Shown here piece after piece: positions 12,999 to 41,559 of a DNA stretch of 64,000 nt. A program made the translations under genes and the position numbers. The stretch lies in the NCBI RefSeq assembly GCF_964213995.1, contig NW_027590186.1, positions 744,001-808,000 of the forward strand, in the 5' to 3' direction. The DNA comes from Mustelus asterias. Lineage: Eukaryota. Below the pieces are notes generated by a model, which saw only the letters and a program-made list of their open reading frames with translations, ran no database searches and had not been told where the DNA came from. Within the stretch, counting starts at the first letter, position 1, and every line of letters starts with the position of its first letter.

Positions 12999-14493
12999 TG
13001 TTAAATAAAGCTGCAAAGATTCATTGTTACTCAGGGCGAATTGAATCATATTCCTCATGTTTCCGTTAACAGTACCGTCTGGAACATTATTTTCATTAGG
13101 GGACTGATTCCATGTTGCTTTAGCAGAATGATTTAATAAGGTAGGCTCTTAGCATGACCGTCACATGCTGTCCAAACTGCCCATTCAATTCACTGACATA
13201 ACAACACCGATAATCTCCCCTGTACATTCCACAGATCGCTTCATATTCCAATTCAAGCAATATATCCAATGCTCAAGGAAATTTGTTGTTGAATCTTCAT
13301 CCAGACAATGCATTCCAGATCCCAGCTGTGTCAAGAATAATCCATTATTCTGTAGTTACGTGTGTAGTCTGGAGAATCTTTCCCAGTTTGGATGGGAGTG
13401 ATTTGGAGGTGAACCTCCAGGTCGTGGTGGTCCCAGGTATCTGCTGCTCTTATCCCCTAGACGGCAGTGTTTGTAGGTTTGGAAAGTGCTGCCTAAAGAG
13501 CCTTAGCGAGTTCCTGCATGTCTAAATGTTTGCCACTGTGCCACGTCTGCCAATGTGTGTATTTGTGGAATTGGTTGCCATCAACTGAATTGCTTTGTCC
13601 TAAATAGTGTCGAGCTTCTTGAGTGTTGTTGGAGCTTCATTCATTCAGTCAACGGGCCGCAGTAGCACAGTGGCATCTGGTCCGTCGTCTTGGAGGTTAG
13701 AGAACATCCGGTGCAGATCCAGGTAGCTTTTATAGGCGATTAAGCCTAATATCTTGGATCATGATAATATGTTCCATGCTGTGGCTGTACACTTTCCAAT
13801 AGTACTTGTTAAAGCACCACATGGTCGACTTTTTAGCATTGAATCACAGAAAATAGGAGCGGGAATAGATCATTCGGCCCTTAGAGCCTGCTCCATCATT
13901 CATTATGATCACGGCTGATCTTCTATTGCAATACTCCTTTCTCCCTACAACCCTTCACACTTTAGAGTCTAGAAATCTATCTATTTCATTTTTAAATATA
14001 TTCAGATACTTGGCCTCCGCAACTTCCTGAGGTGGAGAGTTACACAGCTTCTGAGTGAAGACATTTCTCATAAATGACCTATCACATATTTTGAAACGCT
14101 GACACTCTGTTCTAGACGCTCCACTCCCCCCCCCCCCCCCTCCGTCCACCGCCCCCCCCCCCCTCCCCAAACCCCGGAGCTAGAGGAAGCAACATTCCTG
14201 AATCCAGTCTGACCAGCCCTGTCAGGATTTGAAAAGTTTGAGTGATATTACAAAAATTTCATTCCACTTAGCAAACTTAAACCACATGAGATTTATGAGG
14301 AAGTGACTGTCCGGGTGTGATATTATCCGTACATTAGATGGATGGCCTTATTCTGTGTGGTAGAGTAACACTATGGTTCCATGGATTGTTGTCAGCAATG
14401 AATCTATTGGAGTTTGATGAAGGGGACAAACTGTGTGCAGTTCCTCTAGTTTGGGTTTCTTTTACAAATCTGGGGCTGACCCGCCTCACTGTG

Positions 14494-15249
14494 TTAACTG
14501 TGTACTCTAATAAGTAGCTGTTTCCTCCATCGTCAGAAACCTGACATCCAAAGCAAATATATTGTGTGCAAGCTCTTTGGAAACAGTGAATCGTCCTCGA
14601 GTCTCCCCACAGTATCAATGGAAGTCTTCATCATAGTAGGAAACTAGCCAGTCTGGCCTCTTTCAGGGACCATGACAGTACCAGTACAGCCAATAGCCAC
14701 TGAAGTCGAAGCCGCTGGTATTGCAGGTCAGGGACAGGGACTACACTGGGAACCACTTCTCTGCCTCTGGCTGCGTCAGAACTACTTCCGACTGGACACC
14801 TGTTAAAGTCAAAAAGACATCCATTATTGTGATGGGCGGATCGGTGGCACAGTGGTTTTTATTCCAGGCCTGAGTACTATCTGTGTGGAGTTTAGACGTT
14901 CTCCCCGTGCCTGCGTGGGTTTCCTTTGAATGCTCCAATTTCCTTCCACAGTCCAAAGATATGCACGCTAGGTGGATTTATCATGCTAACGTGTTCCTAA
15001 ATATCGGTAGATGTCTCGATTAGGTGATTAGCAGGGGTTACGGGGACATGGCAGAGTGGGCCTGAGTGCAAACTCAATGGTGAAATAGCCTCCTTCTCAC
15101 TGTAGGGATTCTATGATGATTCCTTCCCCTGTAACACACCATTGAAAGGTGAGGTTCTGCAAACACACACAGCAGGAATTTGGGGAAATGTCAAGCAGCT
15201 CACTGCAGAAGGAACCCTCCAATAGTCCGAGTAACATTGTTAACCTCAT
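14494..15249 (-). pseudogene. IgH-like (TAILV/VHdelta-like) V pseudogene. Leader 15204-15249, V exon 14494-14799
   Basis: Leader MRLTMLLGLLEGSFC(S). V reads VQSEVVLTQPEAEKWFPV*SLSLTCNTSGFDFSGYWLYWYCHGP*KRPDWLVSYYDEDFH*YCGETRGRFTVSKELAHNIFALDVRFLTMEETATY*STQL, with four in-frame stops and the second Cys lost. Heptamer CACAGTG 14487-93 with a degenerate nonamer. SINE in the leader intron. Confidence 0.88.
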
Positions 15250-16830: not shown

Positions 16831-16973
16831 GCCTGTCCATCCCTGTGTTGGTGCTGCAATTCTACAACACCGACATTGGACAATGGGGCTACAAATCATG
16901 CCCAGCGTTCCCATTGCCTGGGAGAGGAACCTACAGTTTACGTAGAGGCTACTGCCTGGAATGTGCGAGTGTG

Positions 16974-18048
16974 TGTGTTTAAGATGCAGAAGTATTTCCT
17001 GGAGTCCTCAGCTGTCACCGGTGCAACTGTCAGACTGATGATTCTGTAAGTTTTGCTCAGGGAGGAGGAAAAGCGACGCCTGGAAAATGTGGCGCTGTCA
17101 CTGAAACCATCGGTGCAGCGGACGACAATATACTCGGGACTTCCCCCCATGGCTGGGTGGAGAGGTTCCCGGTACCAGACCAAGCAAGCTCTCTCCACCT
17201 CTGTGTATGAGCAGGTGATTGTCGTGGTGGCTCCCTGTTGGACCCTCACCTCTGCCTCCGGCTGGTGGATGACTGCGGATGCAGCCAGGCTACCTGAAGG
17301 ATAGAGAAAATTAGAATTAAGTGGAGGTTCCAGGCACTCTATCGATTTGAAACTGGGGAGCTGCGGGGGAGGGGGAGGATGGGGTGTGCCCAATGGAGGT
17401 TGGCCCCAGTTCCCACTGCCTTTTCTCACTACTGAAGCTTTTAAATAACTATTTGTAAAATTCCAATCATTAAATAAACTCAGTCACCAGTAATATTGCT
17501 GTGTACTTATCTCGAAAGATCAACATTAAATATAAGAATATAAAATAATTTATTGAAAGGAAATCAATGAGAATAACTAAATTAAGTTGATTTATCAGTG
17601 TCACAAGTGGGCTTACATTAACACTGCAATGAAGTTACTGTCGCCACGCTCCAGCGCCTGTTCTATTACACTGAGGGAGAGAATAGCACGGCCAATGCAC
17701 CTAATCAGCACATGTTTCGGACTGCAGGAGGAAAACATAGCACCCAGAGGAAACTCACGCAGACATGGGGGGAACGTGCAGACTCTGCACAGTGACCCAA
17801 GCCGGTAATCGAATCCGGGTCCCTGGCGCTGTGAGGCAGCAGTGCTAAACATTGTGCCAAAATGCCGCCCCTAATAATTAATTAAATCCAACCACTGCGA
17901 ATATTGCTCTACTTTTTCTCTAAAAGCAACATTAAATGTGGAAGAATAAAAGGCTTTCTTGAGAGGTAATCAATGCGAATGTGAAGTGTAACTCACCTGA
18001 TATGATTGCTGCTAGAATGAAAGCTTTTAACCCTCGTGGGTGATCCAT
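16974..18048 (-). CDS. TCR alpha/delta-like V gene with open frame but atypical features. Leader 17997-18048, V exon 16974-17293
   Basis: Leader MDHPRGLKAFILAAIIS(G) has a phase-1 GTGAGT donor. V exon SLAASAVIHQPEAEVRVQQGATTTITCSYTEVERACLVWYREPLHPAMGGSPEYIVVRCTDGFSDSATFSRRRFSSSLSKTYRIISLTVAPVTAEDSRKYFCILNT keeps C, WYR and EDSxxYFC. Degenerate RSS CACACTC-23-ACGTAAACT at 16935-16973. Confidence 0.8.
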
Positions 18049-21700: not shown

Positions 21701-23385
21701 CACGTTCTGTCCCTTCCTTTTATTTTCTGGTAACAATCAGTTTCATCGTTAACCTTCACTCCAACCTTCTCCTTTAACTTCGATATTTTTTAGTATTACA
21801 TGGAACTGAACACTGATTCCTCCTGACCCCACTATTTAGTTTAAAGCCCTATTTACAGCCCTAGTTATTCGCCAGCATGATTCAGATTGAGTCCGCACCG
21901 ATGCAACAGCTCCTTCCTGCACAAATACTGGTGCTAATATTCCATGAATTCGAACACATTTCTCCCACATGAAACTATGAGCCACACTGTTGGTTGGTTT
22001 TTCGAGGTGGTCAGATACCGTCAGAAATCTCAGACAATACAGGACCGACGAAGCCAGTGTCTCAGTTTAAAGACGTAACCTTTATTTTGACCAGCGGCCA
22101 CCAAGAGAAATAATTAAAGGGTCAGGGCAGCTCTGATACAGAGCATCTCGCCCTCTCCAATGAAATCTGACGTATGCAATTCAAATCAGGCCAATTATAG
22201 TTTTCCTTATTAATTACTCCCGCCTTTCATGAGCTTTAAATCAATCATCTTCAATATACTTAAACCAGCAATAATTTATGTTAGATACCTTTGCCAATCA
22301 CATCTTACCTTCTGGCAAAATGGCAGTTCCTTCGTCCTTAGAATTCAGATGCAAACTCCTGCCTTGGCTAACCCAGATTTCTGTATCCCATAGTAACCAG
22401 ACACCAGCCCCAAAGTTCAAAGGGCACGTTCCAATGAGTTCCTCTACAGGTCACTGCCAAACCAGATTAACACTTGACTCCACGTTTGGGCATGCATCCA
22501 TTTTATCTGGACAGTGAATATACCCTATTCATAAAATTTGTTTAAGTGTTCTGAATGTTCTTTCCATTCGAAGCTCTACTGATGAAACTTGCATATTCTC
22601 AAGGTTTTAATATTTTTTTAGAATATGACTTTGCCCTAATGCCCTATAACATAATGCTTCGCAGCATACTGCCTTTGGCTAAAGTGAACAATGATTCTTA
22701 AAAATATATTAATACATTCAAATCTTTAAATCATAATCACTTGTTTAAATCTCTTACTGCATTTCATATGTGTGCAAACTGCTTTCGTGTTACTTTATAA
22801 ATCTGTTTTAAAGTCATTTAACTTAATGCTGGTAGTTCTGTCAGTGTCCTAATTTCTAAATGTCTAAAAATCTTTACGAACATATTAGAATTTTTCCCGG
22901 TACACACACGTTTACCTCTTTAATCTCATTAATCGTGTCCCAGTTAGCTCATGGCTCAGATTTTAATCCAGAGATTATTACCTTTTTGGTTGTGATTTTG
23001 AGTTTAGAACTTGGCTATTCATCTTCCCTTAGCAGAATGTGTATCCTTGCTCTGCCTATGTCATTCGTACATACGTCAAAAATGACAACTGGATTTTCCC
23101 CCTCCCATTCCGAATTTCTCTGCAGTCCAGAGGAGGTGAACCGAAACCTGGCACCAGGGGGCAACACAATCTACAGGACTATCGCTCCTGGTCACAGAGA
23201 ACATTGTCTATGCCCATAACTATACGATCGCCGATAACGACTAGATTTCTCCTTCCTGCCCCACTTGAATGGCTCCCTGGCCCACGGTATTGTGGCCACT
23301 TCGCTCATCTGTCCTACAGTCCTCACCCTCGTCAACAGCAGGAGCAAGAATCTTGAACCTGTTGGACAAGGAGTAGGACAAAGTT
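18795..23385 (-). mobile_element. Old CR1 LINE with nested Penelope-like fragment (about 19997-21200) and solo LTR
   Basis: LTNLLEFFEDVT, KSPGPN, DDFNMH and LSNRF motifs. The nested piece encodes EQHFIFRL..LQPSGL.IEFNNF, resembling a Penelope GIY-YIG C-terminus. Confidence 0.7.
21988..22904 (-). mobile_element. Solo-LTR-like insertion (917 bp) nested in a CR1
   Basis: TGT...ACA termini, flanking direct repeat CACAC (21983-87 and 22905-09), and minus-strand AATAAA about 95 nt from the end. CR1-like sequence resumes on both sides. Confidence 0.7.
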
Positions 23386-23394
23386 TTCAGCACA

Positions 23395-23604
23395 TCTCTC
23401 TCCGTGTTCTGTATCACTGTGTCTGTAATCCTCACCATGTTTAGGTTTTTGTGCAGCTCCCTTCGTGTTCTGTATCACTGCGTCTGTAATCCTCACCATG
23501 TTTAGGTTTTTGTGCAGCTCTCTCTGTGTTCTGTATCACTGTGTCTGTAATCCTCACCATGTTCAGGTTTTTGTACAGCTCTCTCCGTGTTCTGTATCAC
23601 TGTG
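23395..23604 (-). repeat. 61-bp tandem repeat (about 3.5 units), each unit carrying a 23-RSS
   Basis: Heptamer/nonamer pairs, all with 23-nt spacers: 23598-604/23566-74 (CACAGTG/ACAAAAACC), 23537-43/23505-13 (perfect), 23476-82/23444-52 (CGCAGTG/perfect). Fourth heptamer 23415-21 has no good nonamer. Confidence 0.93.
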
Positions 23605-23910
23605 CTATGTGCCGACTCAGTCCACAGTAATAGACAGCCGAGTCGCTTAGTTGCAGTTTGGAGATCTTTAACCGGCTGATTTTCTGGACAGAATCGATAG
23701 AAGCAGAAATTCTCTCCCCGGCAGCGTTTTCTTTATTGCCCCCTCCTGAAGTGTGTTTCTGCAGCAAGTATTTCAGAGTCTGCCCTGGGGGCTGACTGTA
23801 CCAGTGTACTGTGTACTGACAGATTCCTGAATATTCACAGCTTAATGTAACCGTGTCATCGGCAGCAGAGATTTGGAGAGGCGGATTCTTGGATACAAGG
23901 GAAGAGAAAT
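23605..23910 (-). CDS. TCR delta variable exon of NAR-TCR 'supporting Vdelta' type, open frame
   Basis: A phase-1 acceptor (polyT...ctgcag) precedes DFSSLVSKNPPLQISAADDTVTLSCEYSGICQYTVHWYSQPPGQTLKYLLQKHTSGGGNKENAAGERISASIDSVQKISRLKISKLQLSDSAVYYCGLSRHI. Has C...WY.Q...LQLSDSAVYYC and an extra CDR1 Cys (YSGICQY). Lies 4.2 kb downstream of the NAR J in compatible splice phase, with a perfect 23-RSS. Confidence 0.9.
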
Positions 23911-24107
23911 CTGCAGGATTAGAAAAAAAAGAGTTTTGTTTAGGTTTTGCCATTTTTTAGTCGGAGATTGTGTCAGTCGCAGGAGTAGCTCAGTTTTATG
24001 CGGAGTTATTATTATTTTAATTCTAATGGAACGATATTGACTTACTCTATAAACCAGTGTACAATGAGGTGACATTTTATTTTGCACAAGTTCTAATGAT
24101 CTGTAAC

Positions 24108-24570
24108 GATGTTATTAAACTGGAGGGAGTGCAGAAGAGATTTACAAGGATGTTGCCAGGACTCAAGGGACTGAGTTATCGGGAGAGTTTGGACTTTTTC
24201 CTTTGGTGCGTAGGAGATAGAGGGGTGATCTTATAGAAGTGTATAAGATCATGACAGGCACGGATAGGGCTAATGAACTCAGTCTTATTTCCAGGGTTTG
24301 GGAGTCGAGAGCAAGAGGGAATAGGGAAAGAAGTAACCTGCAGAGCAACTTTTTTTTTACACAGAGGGTGATACGTATGTGGAATGAGCTGTCGGAGAAA
24401 GTGGTTGAGGCAGGGACATTGTCAACATTTAAAAGGCATTTGGACAGATACATGGATAGGAAAGGTTTAGAGGGATATCGGCCAAATGCAGGCGAATGGC
24501 AGAGCTTCGACGGACATTTTGATCGGCATGGATCAGTTTGGATCTGCCGTTAATTCTGTGAATCTATGAA
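24108..24570 (+). mobile_element. CR1 3' fragment just upstream of the Vdelta exon
   Basis: FFTQRVIRMWNEL motif and a 3' tail. Confidence 0.8.
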
Positions 24571-24633
24571 TACACTGTCAGCTTAGTAGGAGCTGGTTTA
24601 ACAATGAATTATGAATGAGCACTGATCACATAC

Positions 24634-24670
24634 CTGAACAGGAAAACAACAGGTTTTGGGGAAATTTCAT
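24634..24670 (-). other. Putative short leader exon for the supporting Vdelta (MKFPQNLLFSCS + G)
   Basis: GCCATG start, 37 nt, phase-1 donor CAG|GTATGT, in frame with the Vdelta exon. TATAAAT lies just upstream and two CRE-like TGACGCA motifs sit near 24830 and 24875. The hydrophobic core is short. Confidence 0.5.
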
Positions 24671-26015
24671 GGCTCGTGGAAGAATTGGATTTCATTTATA
24701 AAGTGGCAGCATCAACCCGAGGGGCCGAATGTCGCCCTTCCACGCTAATTTATTCTATGATATATGTTAGGTTTTAGTTTCTATTTTCCTTTTTGAGAGC
24801 GATATCGAAGGGAACATTTTATTATCAGTGACGCAATCCTTTTCTGGCGATGATTGCCAAAGAACAACCCAGCTGCGTCACATCACAGCACACAGCAAGA
24901 TCCAACAGAGTGATTGTGATTCATCAGCTCCGATGGGGCCGAACCATGTTGACCATCGGTGGCCAAATGTCATTTATTTATTTTAGTTTAGTTTAACACC
25001 TCCCGGGAGTCAATGTTTGCTTTTTAATCTATTTGTTTATTTTCTATCTATTGGTATCATTTTTCTCCACTTCTCTTTACATTGAGATATCCAGTCACTT
25101 TCATTTCATTTACTTTGTGCTGTTTGGTTTTCCTGAGTCGTGGGAACGCGTCCTAAAGTCTCGTAGTTGTCAGTTGCGTTCATCCTGTTCACTTTCCGCA
25201 GTGGTTTTACTGTTACTCACTGGGAACTGCCTCTTTTGGATCTCTCACAATTTCATTTTTTTCTGCTCATTAACTGATTCTCTCCCGGGTTCTCTGGGCA
25301 GAGTTTTCTCTAAATTGTACATTGTACAGAAACTCCTGTTCCACATTTCAAAGCTGCTCCATCACTCAGTTATGTTGCAGCTTATTTCCTGTCTCAACAA
25401 CAAATTCCTGTGTTGTCCACATTTGCCCTGACCATTTTAGTGTACAAATATGTAACAAACGCTGCTTTGAATGCGTTCAACACTAACTATCCACGGCTCT
25501 CTGTGGTCTGGAATTCGCAGATTCACCACAATGGCTTTGACTGAAGAAATGTCTCCTCTCCGCAGTCCAAATTGCTGAACCGTCATTCTGAAAATGTGAC
25601 CCCAAATTATAGACTTCCCAGATTGGAAAAACTACCACCCAGAATCTGCCTTTCAAGTCCTTTGAGAATATAATAAATTCTACTGAGATCACTCCTCACT
25701 CCTCTAATATCAGTCGACGGAAAATAGGCAATGGGTCTTCAATCACTTCTCAAAGGACAATCATTTTATCCCAAGACTCTGTTTAGTGAATATTAGTTAA
25801 ATTCCCTCCGAAGTATGTACATCCTTCCAAACTAAAGGAGATCAAATCTCACATAGTATTCCAGTTCAGTTCGAATCTCCGCAAATCTCGTTTTCAATCC
25901 TTGAGTTTTATTGTATTTTCAGTATTCTCCAGAAATAATAATCCAATCTTTCTCTCCATGTCGATTAATTCTCTATCGATTGTTCTAAATGGATATTCCC
26001 TTCACAATTGTTCCC

Positions 26016-26350
26016 GGCACGGTAGCACAGTGGTTAGCACTGCTGCTTCACATCTCCAGGGTCCCGGGTTCGATGCTCGGGTCACTGTCTGTGTGGAGTT
26101 TGCACATTCTCCTCATGTCTGCGTGGGTTTCCTCCGGGTGCTCCGGTTTCCTCCCACAGTCCAAAGATGTGCGGGTTAGGTTGATTGGCCAGGTTAAAAA
26201 TTGCCCCATAGATGCATAGGTTAGAGGGATTAGTGGGTAAAAATATGTGGGGGTAGGGCCTGGGTGGGATTGTGGTCGGTGCAGACTCGATGGGCCGAAT
26301 GGCCTCCTTCTGCACTGTAGGGGTTCTATGATTCTTTCTATGATTCTTTC
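26016..26350 (+). mobile_element. HE1-type tRNA-derived shark SINE. Other copies near 14835-15115+, 16225-16460-, 17590-17870-, 51203-51495+, 51610-51900+, 54063-54375+, 60168-60503-
   Basis: GGCACGGTAGCACAGTGGTTAGCACTGCTGC head with A/B boxes (GGTTCGA), a shared core, and a CR1-like (ATTCTATG) tail. Confidence 0.85.
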
Positions 26351-28114
26351 TATTGTTCCTGTTCTCCTTGATACAATTACCACATCATCCTCCACTCTTA
26401 CTGCACTGTGTGATTTCAGTTAACACTGATCAGGGCTACAAATACATTACAGCAATCACCCACAAACAACCATCACAAATCCGGAATGTCCTGTCCCATT
26501 GGCAGGACAGACTCAGTAGAGCTGGCGGCATGATATTGTCGGGAGCGACTTGCCCTGGGAATCCACAATACCGCCTCTGGACCGCATGAAGCCTCATGAC
26601 ATCAGGTCAGACATGGGCAAGGAAGCGGTCTGCTGATTACCATGTGCCTCTGCTGACATATCTACACTCCTCCATGTTGAACAACATCTGGATGAAGCAC
26701 TGAGGATGTCAAACGTGCATAACGTATCCTGGTTAGGGGGCTTCAATATAAATCACCACGACTGGCTCGGTAGCACATAGCTGGACATAACTGCCAGACT
26801 GGGACTGCGGTAGGTAGCGAGGAAACTACCAATAGGGAATAAAGTATATTTGACCTCAGCCTCAGCAACCTTACTGCCGCAGATGCATCACCACAGAAGT
26901 ATCAGTAGGAGTGACCACATGCAGTCCATGTGGACACAATTTATTGTCTTCACATTGAGCTTCACTCCATCGTGTAGTTTTTCCCAGTCGCCGTGCTAAA
27001 TCGTGCTAAGTCCCCTGCATTGACATTAGCAAACGAGGGATTAACACTGGTTCAATGAAGACTGCAGGAGGCAATGCCGGCAGCAACACCAGACATCCCT
27101 ATAACTGATTTGTCAATCCGGTGAAGATAAAGCTGAAGCCTTGGCAAGAATCCTCATCCAGAGATATCGAGTGGATGATCCATCTCAATCTCCTCCGGAG
27201 GTCCCCAGCATCACTGATGTCAATTTTCATCCAATTTGATTCACTCCACGTGACTTCAGGACCGGCTGAAGGCACAGGATACTGCAAAGGCTATGGGCTC
27301 TGGAAGTATCCCAGCAATTTACTGAAGACCTGTGCTCCAGAATTAACCACTAACGGTGGAAAATGAGAAAAAGTTATTGTTTATAAGGAGGATATTTAAA
27401 GAAATATCAGGCACAATGTCACTAATTTCAGCCACTGATTTCTTTATTACAAAATTCCTTTGGACCTACAACAAGATCCCTTATACCTGAAGCCCGTTGT
27501 TTAATTTTCTGTTTGTCTCCCGGGTCAGGTATTGAGTGAGTCACTGCGGTTAAATGGACTGGCCGCAGTGACATCGATCTCATTCACCCGGTACCTTATT
27601 GACATTGCACGGCTAGGACTGCAATCTACTGCCCAGGAGAGAGCTCTGAGACCCCGCTGCCGGGTTGTAAGCGAGAGACAAACCTCTCCCAGTCACATAT
27701 CACATCCAGAGTGGATTCCGGGGTGTTGTCAATTTGAGTTTGTTAAAAAAAAACTCCCAGGAGTGTCAGAGTTCTTGATGTTGATGTGCCTCTTAAAACA
27801 ATCGCCCAGATTCTGTCAACTCTCACAGAACACTGAACCGCACCCAGCGCCTCACCACCACCCCCACCCACAAGCCTCAGCCCACTATCCCTGCCCCGCT
27901 GACCGCCGACTCCATCAGGCCACACAGACACTTTCCCCGGGACTGACCTGGACCCGACTCCAGAATCACATCCTGCTCCCAACTCGAAATCTGTAACGGA
28001 TGATTTTGCATAGGAAGATTCGATTGGATTGAAACGAGACAGATCACAATGATAAAGTGATGGGGAACATTAAACGAGACAGTCTGTAACACGGCGGGGT
28101 TTGGAGTCACTTAC

Positions 28115-28212
28115 CGGCTGTGACAGTCACCACCGTCCCGGATCCATCCACATTATCATATTCCCATGCAGTACACAGTGGCACCTCTCTCAGTCTCCCC
28201 GGTACAAGAACC
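28115..28212 (-). other. NAR-TCR J segment (coding 28115-28173) with 23-RSS (28174-28212)
   Basis: Encodes TAWEYDNVDGSGTVVTVTA, an IgNAR-like xGxGTVVTV motif rather than FGxG/WGxG. Phase-1 GTAAGT donor. Plus strand cacagtg 28174-80, 23 nt, acaagaacc 28204-12. Confidence 0.92.
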
Positions 28213-28523
28213 ACCGACATCTCAATCTGCCGAGAAACCATCACCAATCAATCGGAAGTGTCCAATTATTCGGGGGATTTAAAATTAATAAACAATATTC
28301 AACGTTTCACCGTCTCTGTCGGTTCAAATTGTACTTTGTGAGGCCCAAGGTCTCAGTAAATGGCTGCAGGGAGGAAATATTAACTTCATATATAGCAAAA
28401 AAAATCAAAGAAAGATGTGAGTGGTGGAGATTACAATAGAAGTAATCCAGATTACAGCGATAATATCGTCAAACCAATGATTCACTGTCTGGGCCCTGAG
28501 AATTTATATTGTAATTGTGCACA

Positions 28524-28592
28524 GGTATTTGCTCAGCTTCCTTCCACTGTGACTTTCCAATCAACACAGTGGTACAATTCAGCATCAAAACC
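28524..28592 (-). other. NAR-TCR D segment (core 28552-28564, TTGATTGGAAAGT) flanked by 12/12 RSS
   Basis: Plus strand ggtatttgc(28524-32), 12 nt, cactgtg(28545-51), 13-nt core, cacagtg(28565-71), 12 nt, atcaaaacc(28584-92). Both heptamers are perfect. Lies between the V and the J. Confidence 0.9.
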
Positions 28593-28955
28593 TTGTGTAC
28601 TGGGTGGGATGTTGGAACATGAATTAAACCGCGCGGAATGTGGCTGCCAGCTCCGGCTGTGAGCCCAGGATCCCATCTGGTGTGTGGGTTTGTAACTGGA
28701 ATCAGTCATTTCCATTCTCCATTCACGGACAACACTCCCAGAAATGACACCGCCATCCACTCACACTCCATATTTATGAAACTGAAATTGTTAACGGGAG
28801 TGATCAGGTCTCATTAAAAACGAGAGTGCGGCACCGAGAGTCTGAGGTGCAACTGTGGGGATTGGCGGGGGGCGGGTGGGAGGGGGTGGGGGTGGCGGTA
28901 TTCAGGGCCGATGAACTCCGGTTTTTCATTTGATTCCGTGAGAATCTGCAGGGAG

Positions 28956-28993
28956 AGTTTTTGTATCGCTGGAAGCCGAGGCCCATCACGGTG
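28956..28993 (-). promoter_or_regulatory. RSS of NAR-TCR V: CACCGTG, 22-bp spacer, ACAAAAACT
   Basis: Plus strand agtttttgt 28956-28964, 22 nt, cacggtg 28987-28993, abutting the V end. Confidence 0.9.
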
Positions 28994-29462
28994 TGCCGTA
29001 CCGGTACTGAGCTTTACAGTAATAGGTGGCGGTGTCTTCAACTGTCACATCCCGAATTTCCAGCGAAAATGTCTTTTTTGCTTTGTTCACAGACACAACA
29101 AATCTCCCTCCGCTGGAGATCCGCTCCCACTCCGTCCCGGTCTGGGTTTGTTTGAAGAAATGTCCATTTTCTAAGTAATAGTAATAACCATGTAAAACGC
29201 AGGTGATGGTGAGAGACTGACATTCCTTCCTGGTCACCGCTTCCGGGCTCTGTGTCACTGACTGACTGAAAGACCCTGGAAATTAAACACAGAGAGTTTA
29301 TTGGACCATCAGAGCTGAACCACACAACGAGGCTAAAACCCCAGTGTTTGTAATTGGGATGGACTGGGGCAGCTTTATATTCAATCCACACAATGTGGGT
29401 TAGTGCGATTAGTACTCACGGGGTAAACAGACACACAGGCTGAAAACAAGAAGGATTCCCAT
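28994..29462 (-). CDS. NAR-TCR (IgNAR-like) variable segment, apparently functional. Leader exon 29420-29462, V exon 28994-29275
   Basis: Leader MGILLVFSLCVCLP ends at a phase-1 GTGAGT donor and splices in frame (ttccag acceptor) to RSFSQSVTQSPEAVTRKECQSLTITCVLHGYYYYLENGHFFKQTQTGTEWERISSGGRFVVSVNKAKKTFSLEIRDVTVEDTATYYCKAQYRYG. Canonical Cys pair and DTATYYC are present. FR2/CDR2 is shortened with the VNAR-like ERISSGGRF motif, and FR1 has an extra Cys (KECQ). Followed by an RSS. Confidence 0.92.
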
Positions 29463-31290: not shown

Positions 31291-33538
31291 ACTAGCTTCA
31301 AGAAGGTGTCAAACCACAAGTCCTGACAGATAGATGGGTGACTGCCAGGTCAGGCAGGTATGTAATGCAGGAGTCTCCTGTGGCGATTCCCCTCTCAAAC
31401 AGGTATACCATTTTGGATACTGTTGCGGGGGGTGGGGGGGGGGGGTTGAAAGAGCCGCTCAGGGGAAAATACCAGCAGCAACCAGGCCTGTGGCACCACG
31501 ACTGGTTCTGCTGGAGAGCAAGGTCGAGCTAAATCCAAGACGGAGGCGGGACCAACCGCCATATTATCATTCTAATTTCTATGGAACATTCCTTCCTCTC
31601 TCATTCCCCAAAGCTGTAAATCTCCATCCCACACACTCTCCCTCCATTCTCACTCTGCTGTATCTAATATTCACCCTCCCAATTCTCCTGAAGGTGCTGA
31701 TTGAGGCTGATTGACAGATCCATGCTCACTGCTTCCTGTCCTGGACACAGAGAGACCTGCAAATCTCCATGCAGGCGGCCAGACAGATATATGTCTACAT
31801 TACTGGAGGAAAAATGTGTGGAATATACAGACCGAATTCACTTCATTCCCTTCAGATGGTGCAAGTCCCCAATTTCCCCCAGAATGAGAAAAGAAATGGA
31901 AAGGGGGAAACATTGATTTCCTCCCAGATGTTGCCCTCTTTTTAGGCCAAATCAAATAAACAAACTCAGATTAAGTCAGGACAAAGTAAAAGGGGCAGCT
32001 CCCCAAAAGGAGGGGGAACAGCCCGAACAGAAATCAAAGTACAAAGGAAACTTAAAAAGATCAAATTAAAATGTGATTATTAGGGTCGATAACGCACCCC
32101 AACCCCTGCGGTGCCCAACGGGCGTGGAAGGCATCAACCGCGCCCATGGACACCGCATGCTCCCTCTCCATGGAGACCTGGATGCGAACGTAGCCGCGGT
32201 AGAGGGGAAGACAGTCAGGATGGACGGCCCCCTCGATCGCCCGCTGCCTGGACCGGTAAATGGCGCGTTTCGCCAGGCTTAGGAGCAGGTTCACAAGGAG
32301 GTCACCATCCCGACCCTCCCCTCTCCGCACCGGGTGTCCGTGGATCAGGAGCATGGGACTGAAGTGCAGACTAAACATCAACAAAAGGTTCTTTAGGAAA
32401 ACATAAAGGGAGTGCAGCCTAAGACACACAACATAGACATGGTCCACGGACTCCACAAGGCCACAGAAAGGGCAGTCTTCGGAGCCCGTGAATCAGTGAA
32501 TCCTACGGGGGTGCGGCACTGCTGCATGCATCACCCTCCACCCCAGGTCCCCGACGTAATTGGGGGAGATCCCTCCGTAGAGGGACCTCCAGCGGGGATC
32601 TCCACCGCCCGGCGGCAACAAGGCCCGCCAAGGTGTATCCGGGTGACAGGCGAGGAGGTGGCAGCGGCAGCCCGCACAGGAAACGCCTCCGCGTGGTAGA
32701 AAAAGGCACGGAGGACATTCCCGCGAGGTGGCTCATGCTGTGGGGCACCTCACCCAGGAAGGGGGTTTGAGGTTTTGTCCAATGTGGAATTCCGTCTGAA
32801 CAGGGGAACGCTCGGGCAGGATCCCACCGCACACCTGCACCGCCTCGAGTTTGCGTGCAGTTTCGGGGCCGAGCACGACCGTCCTAAGGGCTAGGATGGC
32901 TTTGGCCGCGTGCCGGACAGTCGTCCCCGCGCGCTCAGCCAGCACGCGGGGACTCATCCAGCCCGCTCCTCCGCCATCGAGCACGTCCCCGATTCTGGTC
33001 ACCCCGGCGTCCACAGCCCTCCTCTCCGCCAGCCACCTGAAGTTATACGGCTGGAGGAGCGGATTCCTGAGCAGCGGCTCTCGCACGAGAGCTGCTACTC
33101 CTGACAGGGGAGAGCTGCGTCACGAGGCGACCGTGTTCCAGACAGTGAGGAGGTCCTGGTAAAAGACGAGCAACTCCTGCAGGGCGGTCGAAACATGCCC
33201 CAGATTGATATGCAGGAGCTGCACGTCATAATTGAGGCCGTGCCACTGGCGGAAGAAATACGTCGCCATGGCACACCACTGTGGAGGGGGCTCAACGTAA
33301 AGGTACCTCTGCAGGGCCTGGAGGCGGAAGGTCGCTATCTGAGTGTGGAGGCACACCAGACCTTGTTTGTCCTCCTCAAGCGGGAGATGCAGAACCGCAG
33401 CAGGGACCCAGTGCAGTCGATTGCCCCAGAAGAACCGCAGGAGGGTTCTCTGGATATCGGCGACAAAGCCAGGGGAGGGGTCAAAGGGACCAGCCCGTAC
33501 CACAGCATGGAGGCGACCAGCTGGTTTATGACGTGAAC

Positions 33539-35935
33539 TCATGCCCCATAGGACAGCACACGGAGCAGTCCTGTCCAGCGACTCAGGCGGGCAGAGACTT
33601 TGGCCTCCAGCTCCCGCCAGTTCGCCGGCCAGGATTCCTCGGCTGGGCAGAGATGGGCCCCCAAGTAGAGGAGGTTGGTCCTGCTCCAGGTGAAAGGCCT
33701 GAGCTCCTCCGGAAGGGGGTCCGTCTCCCAAGGACCGACAAGGAGTCCGGAGCACTTGGCCCAGTTGATCCTGGCGGAGGACGCGGCAGAGTACACCGCC
33801 TGGCATTCTCGCATCCTCCGCAGGTCAGCCGGGTCCGTGAACATGAGGAGCACGTCGTCGGCGTAAGCTGACAGGACCACCCCTACGTCCGGTCCGCGCA
33901 GGACCAAACCTGACAACCTCCTCCGCAAGAGGCGCAGGAATGGCTCCACGCATACGGAATACAGTTGGCCGGACAAGGGGCAGCCCTGCCGTACTCCTCT
34001 CCCGAAGCGAAGGGGCGCCGTCAGGGACCCGTTAACCTTAATCAGACACTCTGCGGCAGAGTACAGTAATCGGATCCGGGCGACAAAATGCGTCCCGAAC
34101 CCGAATGCCCGCAGAGTCCCGAGTAAATACTCGTGCTCCACCCTGTCGAACGCCTTCTCCTGATCTAATGACAAGAAGGCGCCCGACAGACCAGCCCTCT
34201 GGGTGTGATGGATTAGGTCCCGGACCAGGTGGAGATTGTCATGTATGCAACGGCCCGGGACCGTGTAGGACTGGTCAGGGTGGATCAAGTGGTCCAGCAC
34301 GGATCCAAGGCGTGAAGCCATAGCCCTGGCAAAGATTTTATAATCCGTGCTGAGGAGGGAGACCGGGCGCCAGTTCTTGAGCAGATGGAGATCCCCCTTC
34401 TTGGGCAGCAGGGCAATGACAGCCCTGCGCCACGAAAGGGGCATCTCCCCGGTAGCGACGCTCTCCCCCAGGACCCCCGCGTAGTCGCTCCCCAGGACGT
34501 CCCAGAACGCCCTGAAGAACTCTACTGTCAGCCCGTCCAGCCCAGGGGCCTTGCCCCGGCTGAGGCCATTTAGGGCGCCGGTCAGCTCGGCCATGGTGGT
34601 AGGGGCCTCGAGCCTGCCGACGCCCTCCGGGCCGACCTGCGGCAGGTCCTCCCACAGAAGTCTGCGGGCATCCTCGCTGGATGGATCCGGAGAGAAGAGC
34701 GAGGTGTAATACTCCCGGGCAATGGCCCGGATGCCCTCCGGATCCGAGACGGGGGAACCGTCGTCGGCCAGCAGCGTAAGGAGCTGCTGACGGTTAGCCC
34801 GCCCTCTTTCCAGCGAGTAGAAGGGGGAGCCGCGGTCCAGGTCCACCTGGAACTGGAGCCGCGACCTCACGTACGCGCCGCGAGACCTGGCAAGCTGCAG
34901 GTCCCGCAGCGCGTCCTTCTTCTCCCTGTACTCCGAACGCAGGGCCGGGTCCGCGTCAGGCCGACTGAGACGTGCCTCCAGGTCGAGCACCTCCTTCTCC
35001 AACTCCTCGAGCCTGGATTTCCGCCTCTTTGTCGACCCCCTCGCGTACCCCTGACAGAAGGTACGGACGTGAGTCTTGCCCACATCCCACCAGAGCCTCA
35101 AGGAGGGGAAGCCTCCCCGCTTCCTTCTCCAGCCGCCCCAGAATCGACGGAACGAGTCCAGGAAGCGCTCGTCCTCCAGCAGCGTGTTGTTAAAGTGCCA
35201 GTACGCGGACCCCCGCCGGATGCGAGACGGCGCAAAGTCCGCCCACACCAGGCTGTGGTCCGTGCTCGACACCGGCCGCATGGAGACCGAGGACACGCCG
35301 GACACGTGCGCCTTCGAAATGTAAAGGCGGTCGAGCCTGGACGCTCCGACTCCAGGCCTCACGAAAGTGAAGGCGCTGGAGCCAGGATGGAGATGTCTCC
35401 AGACGTCCACCAAGTCGTGGGACCCGATCAGGTCCCGCAACTTCACCACCGCCGGAGTGCGCAGCCAGGGGCCGGTGCGGTCCCGTGCCTCGAGTATGCA
35501 GTTGAAATCTCCCCCGAGGATAATGCATTCGCCCCCCGCGATGGTGTCGATGTGAGCGGACACTTTCTCGTAGAAAGTCGTTTGCTGCGGTCCAGCGGTC
35601 GGGGCGTAGACATTCAGCAAGTGAATGACCACGCCCCCCTCACGGACCGTCAAGTGCAGCAACCGGCCTGGCACCGGCTCCTTGACCCCCAAGATCTCCG
35701 GCTTATAACGCGGGGCCAACAAGATAGCCACCCCGCAAGAAGCGAGCGTGAGGTGGCTCATGTAGACCCCCCCTCGCCACTCCAGGAGCCATTGGGCTTC
35801 GTCTCCCGGAACGGTGTGGGTTTCCTGCAGGAAACACACCGCATACTTCCCGTCACGGAGGACCGAGAAGTTCTGGAACCTGCGGTGTGGCCCACTGCTG
35901 CCGTTGATGTTGAGGCTGGCTATGGTCACCTTCAT
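33539..35935 (-). CDS. Tx1 ORF2 (APE endonuclease + reverse transcriptase), truncated by frameshift
   Basis: 798-aa ORF with the motifs above. The remainder continues in other frames to about 32061. Confidence 0.88.
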   Translation of the reverse strand: MKVTIASLNINGSSGPHRRFQNFSVLRDGKYAVCFLQETHTVPGDEAQWLLEWRGGVYMSHLTLASCGVAILLAPRYKPEILGVKEPVPGRLLHLTVREGGVVIHLLNVYAPTAGPQQTTFYEKVSAHIDTIAGGECIILGGDFNCILEARDRTGPWLRTPAVVKLRDLIGSHDLVDVWRHLHPGSSAFTFVRPGVGASRLDRLYISKAHVSGVSSVSMRPVSSTDHSLVWADFAPSRIRRGSAYWHFNNTLLEDERFLDSFRRFWGGWRRKRGGFPSLRLWWDVGKTHVRTFCQGYARGSTKRRKSRLEELEKEVLDLEARLSRPDADPALRSEYREKKDALRDLQLARSRGAYVRSRLQFQVDLDRGSPFYSLERGRANRQQLLTLLADDGSPVSDPEGIRAIAREYYTSLFSPDPSSEDARRLLWEDLPQVGPEGVGRLEAPTTMAELTGALNGLSRGKAPGLDGLTVEFFRAFWDVLGSDYAGVLGESVATGEMPLSWRRAVIALLPKKGDLHLLKNWRPVSLLSTDYKIFARAMASRLGSVLDHLIHPDQSYTVPGRCIHDNLHLVRDLIHHTQRAGLSGAFLSLDQEKAFDRVEHEYLLGTLRAFGFGTHFVARIRLLYSAAECLIKVNGSLTAPLRFGRGVRQGCPLSGQLYSVCVEPFLRLLRRRLSGLVLRGPDVGVVLSAYADDVLLMFTDPADLRRMRECQAVYSAASSARINWAKCSGLLVGPWETDPLPEELRPFTWSRTNLLYLGAHLCPAEESWPANWRELEAKVSARLSRWTGLLRVLSYGA

Positions 35936-37036
35936 GTCAGCAGCTTTGTGCCACCGTCACCACTTAACTAGGTGTGTGGGGGGGCGCTGGCGCAATTCTC
36001 ACCAGTCCACCCCCCACCTTTTCGAGCCTGTGGAGGAACCGCAGTACCCAGCGCCGCTCTATTTTCTCCAGGCCCGCGGAGGCATGCGAGCATGCCTTCA
36101 CGGACCGGACGAGCTGCGCCAGGTCCGGCCAGTGGCCGAGGGCTAGCCGGATTATGTCGGAGCGACCGGAATGGTTACGGATAAAGACCCTGAGGTCCTT
36201 GGAGGGGATGAGGGACGACTCGGTGGGGGGCACGAGGGAGTCCCCCGCCTCGCTCTGGGCAGACTCTGAAAGTGTCCCCGTGCCCTCCACCGAGCCGCTG
36301 ACCTCCTCAGGGCGGTCGCCCCTCGACTCCGAGTCCCCCGCCGCAGGACGTACGGCGGGCGGCACGGAGCCACCAACTAGCCCTAGCCCCTCCCCGATCC
36401 CACCCCCAGGATCGGTGGAGGAGGGGTTCCCCCCGGGCTCACCTTTCCCGGATTGCGGGCCCCCGTGCGACGGCGGCCCAGCCGCCCCCTCCGCCCCAGA
36501 CGCTTGGACACCCCCCAGGTCCGGTGTATCCTTCGGACTGAGGTTGGGGATGTCCAGCGTCCAAGGTCGGGACGGAGAGGACGAGTGGATCGTCTCTTCG
36601 CCGCCGCCGCCGCACGAGGACATGAACATTGGAGTGTCGCCCCAGTCCCCCGACAGACTGAAGAAGAACTCCGGGTTGTAACCGGCCGGGTGGAACGGAA
36701 CCGTGGGGGTCCCGCTGCCACCCGGCCCCGGAGACTCCTCGCCGGGGGACTGAGGCAACACATGCTTGGATTTACAGGGTGCCTTGCCCCCTTTTTTCTG
36801 GGGACAAGGCACAAAGACAGGTGGGGGCACGGCAGGAGATGACTCACAAGGGGGGAGGGGCACGCAGACCTCAAACTCTACGGTGCCCGAGGGGCCCCGC
36901 CTCTTTTTGTTAACCTGCCCTCGGGCAGGCGAGGCCCCTCGCCCTCCGCCCCTCTTCGCCTTGCCGCGCCCCCCCTGCTCTCCCGTCACTTCCCCCCGAG
37001 GTGGCGGCGTCGCCAGATTTGCCGGCTCGGGGTCGC

Positions 37037-38065
37037 TTACCCCCCCATGCTCGGGCCCATGATCCCGGGCGCCGGACCCAGCACTAGGCCCCGGAGAGCC
37101 CACGGGCCCGGCAGATGGTGGTGGTGGTGGGGGAGGGGGGCGCAGGTGGAGACTGAGGCGGTCCCCGAGCCGGCTGCCGGGGTGGTTGGGGTGTTTTCCC
37201 TGGGGGCCGGGGTTCCGGTACCCCCCTTCTTTTTTGTAGGTCCCTTATGGGCCTTTTGGCCGCGCGGGGGCTCCGCTCCCCCCCCGCCGGCAGCTGAGGT
37301 GGCAGCTGCTGCCGGCGTGGCCTCCCCTCGCGGGGGGGCAGATGGTACTGGTTTGGGGGGAGAGGGGGCTGCGGTGCCAGCTGCGGCCGCCTTGGGTTGG
37401 TGGTCGGCGGCCTTGGAGACGGGGCAGTTTTTTCTCACGTGCCCCGCCTCCTTACAGGCATGGCACCGCACACCGTCCGCGGACCAAAAGACCCGGTACG
37501 TGGTCCCCTCGTGGGGGACATTGAACCCTCCCTCCAGTTCCTCCTCCCGGGCCAGGCGGACAAAAACCTGGCGCCGGAAGGAGTATATGTGGCGGAGGGA
37601 GGGGTCCCGAAGGCCGAGCGGGATCGGCTGCACCCCGGACCTGACCTCCCCCAGTAGATGGAGGTGGGGGAGGAGGAGCTCACTCGGTAGGAAGGGCGGG
37701 ACGTTTGATATTACTATCTTGTGGGCGGTGGCCTCCAAAGGGTCCACCGCCAGGAACGTCCCGCCCACCGTGAGCCCCTTTTCCAGGGCGAGGCGAACCG
37801 CCCGCTCGGCCTTCAGGAAGAATACGGCCCGGCCGTACATCTTAGAGGCCGCGACAATGGCTGAGGGGCCGACAACCCCAGCCATTGCCTTAACGCAGGC
37901 CTCGATAGACATGTCGGGGTGGGCGTAGCACTTCACCCCGAGCTGCCGCGTGATTAAAGAGAATGGCGGCAGGGCCTTGGGAGCGGCGGGGGCTCTGGCA
38001 GCCGCCACGCCCGCATAGGTGGGCCGAGAAGGCCCTGCCACCGGCGACGCTGGTGATGACGCCAT
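37037..38065 (-). CDS. Tx1 ORF1 N-terminal part (gag-like, zinc knuckle)
   Basis: 342-aa ORF with CX2CX4HX4C. The Pro/Gly-rich continuation is the ORF at 35964-37103. Confidence 0.82.
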   Translation of the reverse strand: MASSPASPVAGPSRPTYAGVAAARAPAAPKALPPFSLITRQLGVKCYAHPDMSIEACVKAMAGVVGPSAIVAASKMYGRAVFFLKAERAVRLALEKGLTVGGTFLAVDPLEATAHKIVISNVPPFLPSELLLPHLHLLGEVRSGVQPIPLGLRDPSLRHIYSFRRQVFVRLAREEELEGGFNVPHEGTTYRVFWSADGVRCHACKEAGHVRKNCPVSKAADHQPKAAAAGTAAPSPPKPVPSAPPRGEATPAAAATSAAGGGGAEPPRGQKAHKGPTKKKGGTGTPAPRENTPTTPAAGSGTASVSTCAPLPHHHHHLPGPWALRGLVLGPAPGIMGPSMGG

Positions 38066-38459
38066 TGTATCAGGGGAAGTGCTACACCCACCCCGAGACT
38101 GCCCAGATGCACGGCAGGGCGTATATGTGGAGGGAAAAATAAGGGAGGGTGGGGTAGGTGGGTAGGGGTGTAGGTGTTCTCTCCCCGGAGTGAGAGAGGG
38201 AGAGAGGAGGTCGGAGCAGTGGGAGGGAGATGAGGCACAAGGCTGGTGCCCCAGTCAGGAGGGAAAAAGGGGAGGGTGCACCAATCTTGGGGATAGCAGC
38301 AGTGGGTAGGGGAATTAGGAAAAAGGTCTTCACCCCCCCCACTGCAGATGGAGAAGAGACAGTCCAAACGCCTTCGCCCCCCCCCCCCCCCTTCTCCTCC
38401 AGTTACTCTGTCCTCTCTTCCTCCCTCCCCCCGGGGAGAGCACACCCTCCAGAGGCCGG

Positions 38460-39640
38460 ATGGCAGGCAAGCAGGCAGTCCAGACGGCAGGCAGCCCAGA
38501 CGGCAGGCAGGCAGGCAGTCCAGACGGCAGGCAGGCAGGTAGGTAAGCAGGCCAGACGGCAGGCAGGCAGGTAAGCAGGCCAGACGGCAGGCAGGCAGGT
38601 AAGCAGGCCAGACGGCAGGCAGGCAGGTAAGCAGGCCAGACGGCAGGCAGGCAGGTAAGCAGGCCAGACGGCAGGCAGGCAGGTAAGCAGGCCAGACGGC
38701 AGGCAGGCAGGTAAGCAGGCCAGACGGCAGGCAGGCAGGTAAGCAGGCCAGACGGCAGGCAGGCAGGTAAGCAGGCCAAACGGCAGGCAGGCAGGTAAGC
38801 AGGCCAGACGGCAGGCAGGCAGGTAAGCAGGCCAGACGGCAGGCAGGCAGGTAAGCAGGCCAGACGGCAGGCAGGCAGGTAAGCAGGCCAGACGGCAGGC
38901 AGGCAGGTAAGCAGGCCAGACGGCAGGCAGGCAGGTAAGCAGGCCAGACGGCAGGCAGGCAGGTAAGCAGGCCAGACGGCAGGCAAGCAGGCCAGACGGC
39001 AGGCAGGCAGGTAAGCAGGCCAGACGGCAGGCAGGCAGGTAAGCAGGCCAGACGGCAGGCAGGCAGGTCAGCAGGCCAGACGGCAGGCAGGCAGGTAAGC
39101 AGGCCAGACGGCAGGCAGGCAGGTAAGCAGGCCAGACGGCAGGCAGGCAGGTAAGCAGGCCAGACGGCAGGCAGGCAGGTAAGCAGGCCAGACGGCAGGC
39201 AGGCAGGTAAGCAGGCCAGACGGCAGGCAAGCAGGCCAGACGGCAGGCAGGCAGGTAAGCAGGCCAGACGGCAGGCAGGCAGGTAAGCAGGCCAGACGGC
39301 AGGCAGGCAGGTCAGCAGGCCAGACGGCAGGCAGGCAGGTCAGCAGGCCAGACGGCAGGCAGGCAGGTAAGCAGGCCAGACGGCAGGCAGGCAGGTAAGC
39401 AGGCCAGACGGCAGGCAGGCAGGTAAGCAGGCCAGACGGCAGGCAGGCAGGTAAGCAGGCCAGACGGCAGGCAGGCAGGTAAGCAGGCCAGACGGCAGGC
39501 AGGCAGGTAAGCAGGCCAGACGGCAGGCAGGCAGGTAAGCAGGCCAGACGGCAGGCAGGCAGGTAAGCAGGCCAGACGGCAGGCAGGCAGGTAAGCAGGC
39601 TAGACGGCAGGCAGGCAGGCAACAGGCAGGCCGGGCAAGG
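38460..39640. repeat. 28-bp minisatellite (AAGCAGGCCAGACGGCAGGCAGGCAGGT)n, roughly 40 copies, in the Tx1 5' UTR
   Basis: Near-perfect tandem array. It yields 28-aa periodic spurious ORFs (3 x 28 nt). Confidence 0.95.
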
Positions 39641-39936
39641 CAGGCAGCAGCTCACCTCCCTCCTTCCTCCCCGCAGGGAGCGAAAAACAAACAAACCCAA
39701 CAAAACAAAAACAAAAACCGGGCGTCTCCGTGAGCAAAAACGAGAGAAAAAAAAAAATAAAGGTACTCACAAAAAAAGAAAAGAAAACAAACCCACAGTT
39801 TCCGCCCGGCTCCGACCCGGGGCCCCCCGCTACTCGGGCGAACACGAATCCACCTCACCCCGGAAACAAAACTGGGTGTTGTCCGAGAGGAGGCACGTCT
39901 CAGGCCGTCTGAAGCTCAATCTTCATTCAGAGAGAC

Positions 39937-41559
39937 CTCTTTTTAGGTCAAACCAAGTAAACAAACTCAAATTAAATCAGGACAAAGTAAAAGGGGAGCT
40001 CCCCAAAAAGGAGGGGGAACAGCCCGAACAGAAATCAAAATGCAAAGGAAACTTAAAAACATCAAATTAAAATGTGGTTATCAGGGTCAATAATGCACCC
40101 CAACCCCTGCGGTGCCCAGCGGGCGCGGAAAGCGTCAACCTCGCCCGTGGACACCGCATGCTCCCTCTCCAGGGACACCTGGCCGCGAACGTAGCCGCGG
40201 TAGAGGGGAAGACAGTCAGGATGGACGGCCCCCTCGATCGCCCGCTGCCTGGACCGGTAAATGGCGCGTTTCGCCAGGCCCAGGAGCAGGTTCACGAGGA
40301 GGTCGCCATCCCGACCCTCCCCTCTCCGCACCGGGTGTCCGTAGATCAGGAGCGTGGGACTGAAGTGCAAACAAAATATCAATAAAAGGTTCTTCAGGAA
40401 AACATAAAGGGAGTGCAGCCTAAGACACTCAACATAGACATGGTCCACGGACTCCACAAGGCCACAGAAAGGGCAGTCTTCGGAGCCCGTGAACCAGTGA
40501 ATCCTACGGTTGTGCGGAACTGCTGCATGCATCACCCTCCACCCCAGGTCCCCGACGTAATTGGGGGAGATCCCTCCGTAGAGGGACCTCCAGCGGGGAC
40601 CTCCGCCGCCCGGCGGCAACAAGGCCCGCCAAGGTGTATCCGGGCGACAGGCGAGGAGGCGGTAGTGGAGGGTGTGCAGCAGCAGCCCGCACAGGAAACG
40701 CCTCCGCGCGGTAGAAAAAGGCACGGAGGGCATTTCCGCGAGGCGGCTCAGGCTGTGGGGCACCTCACCCAGGGGAGGGGGCTGAGGCTTTGGGCCAATG
40801 TGGAATTCCGCCCGAACAGGGGAACGCTCGGGCGGGATCCCACCGCACGCCTGCGCCGTCTCAAGTTTGCGTGCAGTTTCGGGGCCGAGCACGACCGTCC
40901 TAAGGTCTAGGATGGCTTTGGCCGCGCGCCGGACGGACGTCCCCGCGCGCTCAGCCAGCACGCGGGGACTCATCCAGCCCGCTCCTCCGCCATCGAGCAC
41001 GTCCCCGATTCTGGTCACCCCGGCGTCCACAGCCCCCCTCTCCGCCAGCCACCTGAAGTTATACGGCTGGAGGAGCGGATTCCTGAGCAGCGGCTCTCGC
41101 ACGAGAGCCGCTACTCCTGACGGGGGAGAGCTGCGTCGCGAGGCGACCTTGTTCCAGACAGTGAGGAGGTCCTGGTAAAAGACGGGCAACTCCTGCAGGG
41201 CGGTCGAAGCACGCCCCAGTTCGATATGCAGGAGCCGCACGTCATAATTGAGACCATGCCACTGGCGGAAGAAATACGTCGCCATGGCACACCACTGTGG
41301 AGGGGGCTCAACGTAAAGGTACCTCTACAGGGCCTGGAGACGGAAGGTCGCTATCTGAGTGCGGAGGCACACCAGACCTTGTCCGCCCTCCTCAAGCGGG
41401 AGATACAGGACCGCAGCAGGGACCCAGTGCAGTCGATTGTCCCAGAAGAACCGCATGAGGATTCTCTGGATATCGGTGACAAAGCCAGGGGGAGGGGTCA
41501 AAGGGACCAGCCGGTACCACAGCATGGAGGCGACCAGCGGGTTTATGATGAGAACTCAC
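39937..41559 (-). mobile_element. 5'-truncated second copy of the same Tx1 family (ORF2 C-terminus + 3' UTR)
   Basis: Highly similar to 31936-33540. Open 407-aa frame includes CPFC...H...C. Same 3' terminus (CCTAAAAAGAG). Confidence 0.92.

Follow-up and report, generated by a model that had tools for sequence, protein, structure and literature searches.

Does a shark build its doubly rearranging T-cell receptor (TCR) delta chain from a single TCR alpha/delta locus, or from blocks that are complete in themselves? The question is raised by a stretch of 64,000 nucleotides from Mustelus asterias (GCF_964213995.1, contig NW_027590186.1, positions 744,001 to 808,000; C154:744001-808000 of genome G000 in our coordinates), referred to here as the window, which carries a cassette of the new antigen receptor (NAR)-TCR type. 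NAR-TCR, a doubly rearranging TCR-delta of cartilaginous fish, was reportedly described by Criscitiello in 2006. We give a probability of roughly 80% to the reading that an intact NAR-TCR cassette here heads its own block of one D-delta, five J-delta and a C-delta (diversity, joining and constant segments), and that this block likely yields a three-domain delta chain through two rounds of RAG joining within it.

The 12/23 rule governs RAG joining, and the first-pass annotation had read a 12/23-compatible series of leader, variable (V), D and J elements, with spacers of 22 after the V, 12 on both sides of the D and 23 before the J. We recovered every one of these elements with open frames, all parts of the cassette lying on the minus strand of the window (RSS, recombination signal sequence; FR, framework region):

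29420..29462, minus strand: leader exon of the NAR-type V, with its ATG at 29462, 14 codons plus 1 nt
28994..29275, minus strand: IgNAR-like V exon, open, with an extra FR1 Cys and with Phe replacing the FR2 Trp
28956..28993, minus strand: RSS of the V, 22-nt spacer, one mismatch in the heptamer and one in the nonamer
28565..28592, read on the plus strand: 12-RSS on the 5' side of the NAR D
28552..28564, minus strand: NAR D segment, 13 nt, two of three frames open
28524..28551, minus strand: 12-RSS on the 3' side of the NAR D
28174..28212, read on the plus strand: 23-RSS of the NAR J
28115..28173, minus strand: NAR J segment with a phase-1 donor

The leader has a mean hydropathy of 2.5 and a phase-1 donor, GTGAGT. 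The V exon matched the Pfam V-set at E 3e-9, and in a PDB search VNAR structures ranked top (E 6e-21). Counting mismatches against the general RSS consensus, we found four signals with at most two mismatches in the 1.39 kb from 28075 to 29462, and none in any of 1,000 mononucleotide shuffles or in window positions 30000-64000.

A second V exon, of V-delta type, lies 4.2 kb downstream of the NAR J and is followed by a repeated signal (CDR, complementarity-determining region):

23605..23910, minus strand: supporting V-delta exon, leaderless and open, with a phase-1 acceptor at 23910 and an extra CDR1 Cys
23566..23604, minus strand: consensus 23-RSS of V-delta, first unit of the tandem array
23396..23604, minus strand: tandem array of 61-bp 23-RSS units, 3.4 copies

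This exon matched the Pfam V-set at E 1e-13. Since the NAR J donor and the V-delta acceptor are both phase 1, the junction foreseen in the first-pass annotation, ...VVTVTA-D-FSSLVSK..., was reproduced as the predicted one. A leader of its own was sought in the intron, where the best of ten ATG..GT candidates had a hydropathy of 0.29, compared with 2.0-2.5 for true leaders. In the RSS array the first two units are consensus, the third has an altered second heptamer base and the fourth lacks a nonamer. Use of a downstream copy would leave an in-frame stop after V-delta, and a productive chain is therefore expected from the first unit alone. By pattern count, every one of the 11 unjoined cassettes with a C of its own has 2-6 RSS units behind V-delta, and the four joined ones have none.

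Papers are cited here by PMC number. According to PMC1845163, the NAR-TcR V has a leader and a Cys in the a-b loop and has lost the Trp of the WYRK motif, and its partner V-delta is leaderless with a Cys in CDR1; all five features could be read from the cassette. Both extra cysteines named in the first-pass annotation are present, and they recur in other sharks. A search with V-delta returned 163 candidates, 52 of which are longer relatives, nearly all of them shark or ray gene models and two of them identical entries labelled Mustelus asterias. From the 52 we aligned 38, chosen as two-domain models of about 220-300 residues; all are automatic gene models, and one of them, P0002, has an artificial V-J join. 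The a-b loop Cys, which corresponds to Cys33 of P0002, was kept in 37 of 38 models, and Phe replaced the WYRK Trp in the window V and in 37 of 38. The CDR1 Cys was kept in 36 and both cysteines together in 35. This co-conservation suggests that the FR1 Cys of NAR V and the CDR1 Cys of V-delta may form an interdomain disulfide. Together with the VNAR top hits and the TCR-delta constant region described below, these features bear out the NAR-TCR identity: by its sequence, the cassette is a real and intact member of the family, with expression predicted. The description "apparently functional" thus holds as a prediction from intact sequence.

Past the low end of the window, on the same strand, the parts needed for a second rearrangement follow at 28-53 kb from V-delta:

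G000:C154:740026-740041, minus strand: D-delta, 16 nt, all three frames open, 12-RSS before and 23-RSS after
C154 739.75, 737.4, 735.8, 726.5 and 725.6 kb, minus strand: five J-delta segments
C154 718.2-714.5 kb, minus strand: C1, connecting-peptide and transmembrane exons of C-delta

From NAR leader to C-delta the block spans about 59 kb of one strand. At least three of the J-delta segments are intact, and human TCR-delta chains matched the constant region best in a PDB search (E 4e-10 to 4e-9). A motif scan from the NAR J to C-delta found no other C-type exon. The genomic potential for the predicted second rearrangement, to delta D, J and C, is therefore present on the same strand as the cassette. 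The first-pass annotation had called this a known system, which is right for the receptor; what it had not conveyed is that the cassette heads a self-contained V-D-J-C block that is repeated many times.

We then searched the assembly, which consists of 5313 contigs, for further copies. The NAR V gave 76 candidates, and all 40 that were scored matched at 83-100% identity. For the C-delta exon, 73 candidates were scored and 19 of them matched; these 19 lie on 17 contigs and all are open. The transmembrane exon gave 19 candidates, all matching, in the same places. A catshark C-delta query (60 candidates) recovered both of these sets of 19 exons and, with weaker matches, two C-alpha transmembrane exons; because this outgroup query returned the same set, it is unlikely that further divergent C-delta copies were overlooked. 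Three copies share the single scaffold C71 (7.14, 11.04 and 12.27 Mb), and the splice sites of the copies are intact wherever they were displayed. An NAR-TCR cassette stands 13-55 kb upstream on the same strand for 15 of the 19 C-delta; a detailed reading of the layout covered six of these 15. The remaining four comprise C138, headed by an IgM-type V; C71 at 11.02 Mb, where a conventional V pseudogene joined to D forms the head; C401, with a V-delta pseudogene joined to D at the contig start; and C3311, a 34-kb contig that starts among J segments. The 5.3-kb C regions share 88-99.9% identity by BLAST; the number of groups is 16 at a cut-off of 99.8%, 15 at 99.5% and nine at 99%.

A protein search with the constant region, restricted to 280-2000 residues, returned 11 longer proteins, seven labelled Mustelus asterias and one each from four other sharks. 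One gene model from basking shark, P0005, repeats the order of the block, with NAR V and V-delta ahead of further V and VH-like (immunoglobulin heavy-chain V-like) domains, J and C. Exons that we read as IgM-like constant exons lie shortly upstream of all three blocks checked (C71 7.07 Mb, C123 and C96); the window showed no such exon, and neither did two 10-kb pieces from upstream of the C71 12.22-Mb block.

The C-alpha exon served as a control for haplotype doubling. It had just two matches, at 100% (C546) and 85% (C71 18.42 Mb), indicating that the assembly does not simply double the region. On C546 (L071-L083, L101-L102) a C-alpha and an array of at least 145 J-alpha motifs occur together with V-alpha/delta genes and relics of D, and no C-delta was found on this contig, which has one gap of 200 N ahead of the J-alpha array (C546:129550). 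On C71, 18.23-18.43 Mb holds 34 J-alpha motifs and C-alpha (L165-L170 at 18.37-18.43 Mb), and V, D and C-delta were all absent from the 140 kb preceding the first J-alpha. A single TCR alpha/delta translocon, with one D-J-C-delta unit ahead of J-alpha and C-alpha, was thus not what we found, with the C546 gap as a caveat.

The paralogues also carry junctions of the RAG type, and therefore signals of these types are used. In 14 of the 40 paralogous loci examined (L022, L024, L026, L027, L029, L031-L033, L036, L040, L041, L047, L048 and L050) a 12-RSS directly follows the V, an apparent old V-D join. This family often faces an inverted second V-delta or cassette, and no C-delta match was found close downstream of it. 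One identical V-delta/D-delta junction is common to C119, C436 and C96, whose C regions differ by 1-3%; since diverged copies share it, the junction is older than their duplication and likely germline. Single cases of V-delta/D-delta joining occur on C850, with a V-delta identical to the window's and 3 nt trimmed on each side, and on C401. NAR D is joined to J on C173 and on C90, and NAR V to D on C110. On C122 (L017, 392.9-398.8 kb) an inversion joins NAR D to V-delta and leaves an exact head-to-head 12/23 signal joint, and signal joints were also found on C110 and at C71 14.38 Mb. These single cases may be of somatic or assembly origin. Finally, C138 (L085, 217.7-218.7 kb) matches an IgM cluster at 99.2% identity over 1789 nt that take in the V and the first D, and then continues into D-delta, J and C-delta. 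As we read it, this Ig-TCR chimera is a genomic form of the IgM-TCR-delta trans-rearrangement described in PMC12227049 and PMC3457774. RAG in germ cells has likely pre-joined some copies of the block. TCR-mu is presented in PMC7615758 as the only TCR with a germline-joined V, and PMC12698447 adds one from a newt.

C850 (L011/L056, 36.27 kb) is a hybrid, its 5' half being 99.5% identical to the window cassette and its sequence past the coding joint about 99.9% identical to the D-J-C of the C71 12.25-Mb block. We considered a RAG join between a window allele and another block and set this reading aside as unproven: farther upstream C850 is only 96-98% identical to the window, two far-downstream pieces are not colinear with C71 at the expected offset, and an earlier crossover within the deleted stretch explains the hybrid equally well.

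Further V-type elements belong to the repeated block:

16942..17293, minus strand: V-set exon, open, with an acceptor, a possible donor and extra cysteines
14454..14799, minus strand: VH-like pseudogene with RSS and stop codons
12267..12780, minus strand: VH-like gene with leader and 23-RSS, frameshifted; its paralogue at G000:C71 12.24 Mb is open

An RSS and a leader were sought for the V-set exon and none was found; its counterpart in the C71 12.24-Mb paralogue is frameshifted. Both VH-like genes sit between V-delta and D-delta. About 30 kb past C-delta there are three TCR alpha/delta V genes of conventional type, not all in one orientation (L103-L104, G000:C154:679.8-683.2 kb). Elsewhere in the window, at about 32000-42000 on the minus strand, lies a GC-rich retroelement without long terminal repeats (non-LTR) with a zinc knuckle, an endonuclease and a reverse transcriptase, and within this region a 28-bp unit is repeated about 42 times at 38491-39647.

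How might the block work? In thymocytes RAG would make the NAR V-D-J join by deletion, with 22/12 and 12/23 signal pairs. A second set of deletional joins, V-delta with D-delta and D-delta with J-delta (23/12 in each case), would remove the VH-like genes in between. Splicing would then give a chain of leader, NAR VDJ, V-delta DJ and C-delta. Under the model of PMC3457774 and PMC6795676, the NAR domain would bind antigen unpaired and V-delta would have a gamma chain as its partner. The two domains may be tied to each other through their FR1 and CDR1 cysteines. As to origin, the 3' end of an ancestral delta locus may have been copied as a unit, with the copies spreading among IgM clusters; all 19 C-delta would thereby have ended up separate from both J-alpha/C-alpha arrays. 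This proposal is based on the similar order in basking-shark P0005 and in the catshark entries of PMC12227049 Table S1.

Several observations weigh against the reading of a self-contained, working block. In the block itself, the RSS of the NAR V departs from consensus at two places, and J3 (735.8 kb) lacks a clear RSS and carries a stop codon in frame at its 5' end. An AlphaFold model of P0002 (pLDDT 77, pTM 0.61) yielded no Cys-Cys distance; it resembles tandem V domains of the single-chain variable fragment (scFv) type, with a TM-score of about 0.35. No transcript was seen: none of 23 listed runs was an RNA one, and four runs over 23300-24600 showed genomic-DNA-like coverage of intron and repeats without an exon-end joint, with 366 loose ends uninspected. 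One contig from the X3 run stops at 23608, where C850 diverges, a weak hint that we did not use as evidence. In the genome, most C-delta copies are on unplaced contigs, and four copies (C106, C115 and C123, and C850 paired with C71 12.27 Mb) have C regions that match another at 99.8-99.9% identity, which means that the count of 19 may exceed the number of distinct loci. The 200-N gap on C546 could conceal a C-delta at the usual place, and cassettes may also use distant D-J-C blocks.

These points bear on three other explanations. An ordinary scattered cassette of a single TCR alpha/delta translocon, with the many C-delta being assembly artefacts such as unpurged haplotypes and duplicated contigs, would fit an assembly in so many contigs, the near-identical C regions, and Table S1 of PMC12227049, where cassettes spread over about 9 Mb in white shark and each species has at most one delta-constant entry. 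However, divergence among the copies reaches 12% and they fall into no fewer than nine groups at 99% identity, three of them are on one scaffold, C-alpha is not doubled, and the near-identical C regions of C106, C115 and C123 are headed by NAR V that are 96%, 86% and 91% identical to the window's. We therefore consider this explanation improbable. Just as improbable is the idea that the blocks are real and mostly silent passengers of segmental duplication among IgM clusters, with one or a few expressed and this one perhaps not. Many paralogues are indeed damaged or non-productively rearranged, the VH-like genes of this block are broken, and, because the duplications are recent, open frames need not reflect selection. 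On the other hand, all 19 C exons are open with intact splice sites where displayed, this block has kept its leader, V, D, J, V-delta, D-delta, at least three J-delta and C intact, and a V-delta identical to the window's occurs joined to D-delta on C850.

The V-D-J might also be an IgNAR antibody cluster or its relic, upstream of a TCR V by chance, as the closest solved structures, VNARs, could suggest. IgNAR clusters have a V with the WYRK Trp, several D segments (three) and IgNAR constant exons behind the J. The window cassette has one D, its V lacks the FR2 (WYRK) Trp and has the FR1 Cys as in NAR-TCR V, the motif scan found no C-type exon before C-delta, and the pairing of V-D-J with a leaderless V-delta is seen again elsewhere in this genome as well as in other sharks' gene models. 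An IgNAR origin of the cassette is hence very hard to credit, and an intact NAR-TCR cassette at the head of its own delta block remains our preferred reading.

Compared with NAR-TCR as known, the cassette has the same leader, IgNAR-like V with a-b loop Cys and without the WYRK Trp, own D and J, and leaderless V-delta with CDR1 Cys; what differs is that D-delta, J-delta and C-delta are its own, within 59 kb, and that C-delta occurs in 19 copies in the genome. Shark TCR loci are described as translocons in PMC6795676 and PMC12227049. The elasmobranch antigen-receptor complex of PMC12227049 likewise has NAR-TCR cassettes, TCR V and VH-like genes among IgM clusters in both orientations, but here D-J-C-delta is multiplied and no C-delta was found ahead of either J-alpha array. 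In its Table S1, which covers selected scaffolds only, the delta-constant adjoins C-alpha where both are given, and one cassette is labelled germline-joined. TCR-mu of marsupials and monotremes (PMC7615758, PMC3457774) is also a two-V-domain, delta-like chain in repeated clusters apart from TCR-alpha, arranged V-D-J-V-(J)-C and with some supporting V pre-joined in the germline, as is likely for some of the shark blocks. Its V genes are VH-related and of independent origin, whereas here a NAR-type V comes first and is followed by a V-delta with one D and five J still in use, in blocks spread out between IgM clusters; the layout is analogous only, and the shark block is not a TCR-mu. Shark Ig miniclusters (PMC2193156) are the same kind of repeated self-contained clusters, some pre-joined by RAG-like activity, but they are antibody loci and the segments here are TCR-delta. 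Our literature search found no report of a multi-cluster shark TCR-delta; primary NAR-TCR papers were outside it, so absence from print is not established. The receptor is known, and its locus organisation is likely new.

Beyond this one block, we somewhat favour the view that in this shark lineage TCR-delta left the TCR-alpha locus and became an antibody-style multi-cluster family: well over ten expressed blocks that lie among IgM clusters and have been remodelled by germline RAG, with pre-joined V-delta-D and an inherited chimera of IgM V-D with TCR-delta D-J-C. If true, cartilaginous fish would have a counterpart of the TCR-mu clusters, and the rule of clustered Ig and translocon TCR in sharks would no longer hold, a split on which models for the origin of TCR-mu, IgNAR and the IgH translocon rest. 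The sequence-tagged copies make it testable whether each T cell uses one block, whether RAG joins across blocks or to IgM, and whether TCR genes are joined in the germline. Many complete delta blocks would show the step from translocon to cluster inside a TCR locus, in parallel to marsupial TCR-mu. Antibody-style clusters, and not the one locus that has been described in sharks, are the likely source of the delta chains of this shark.

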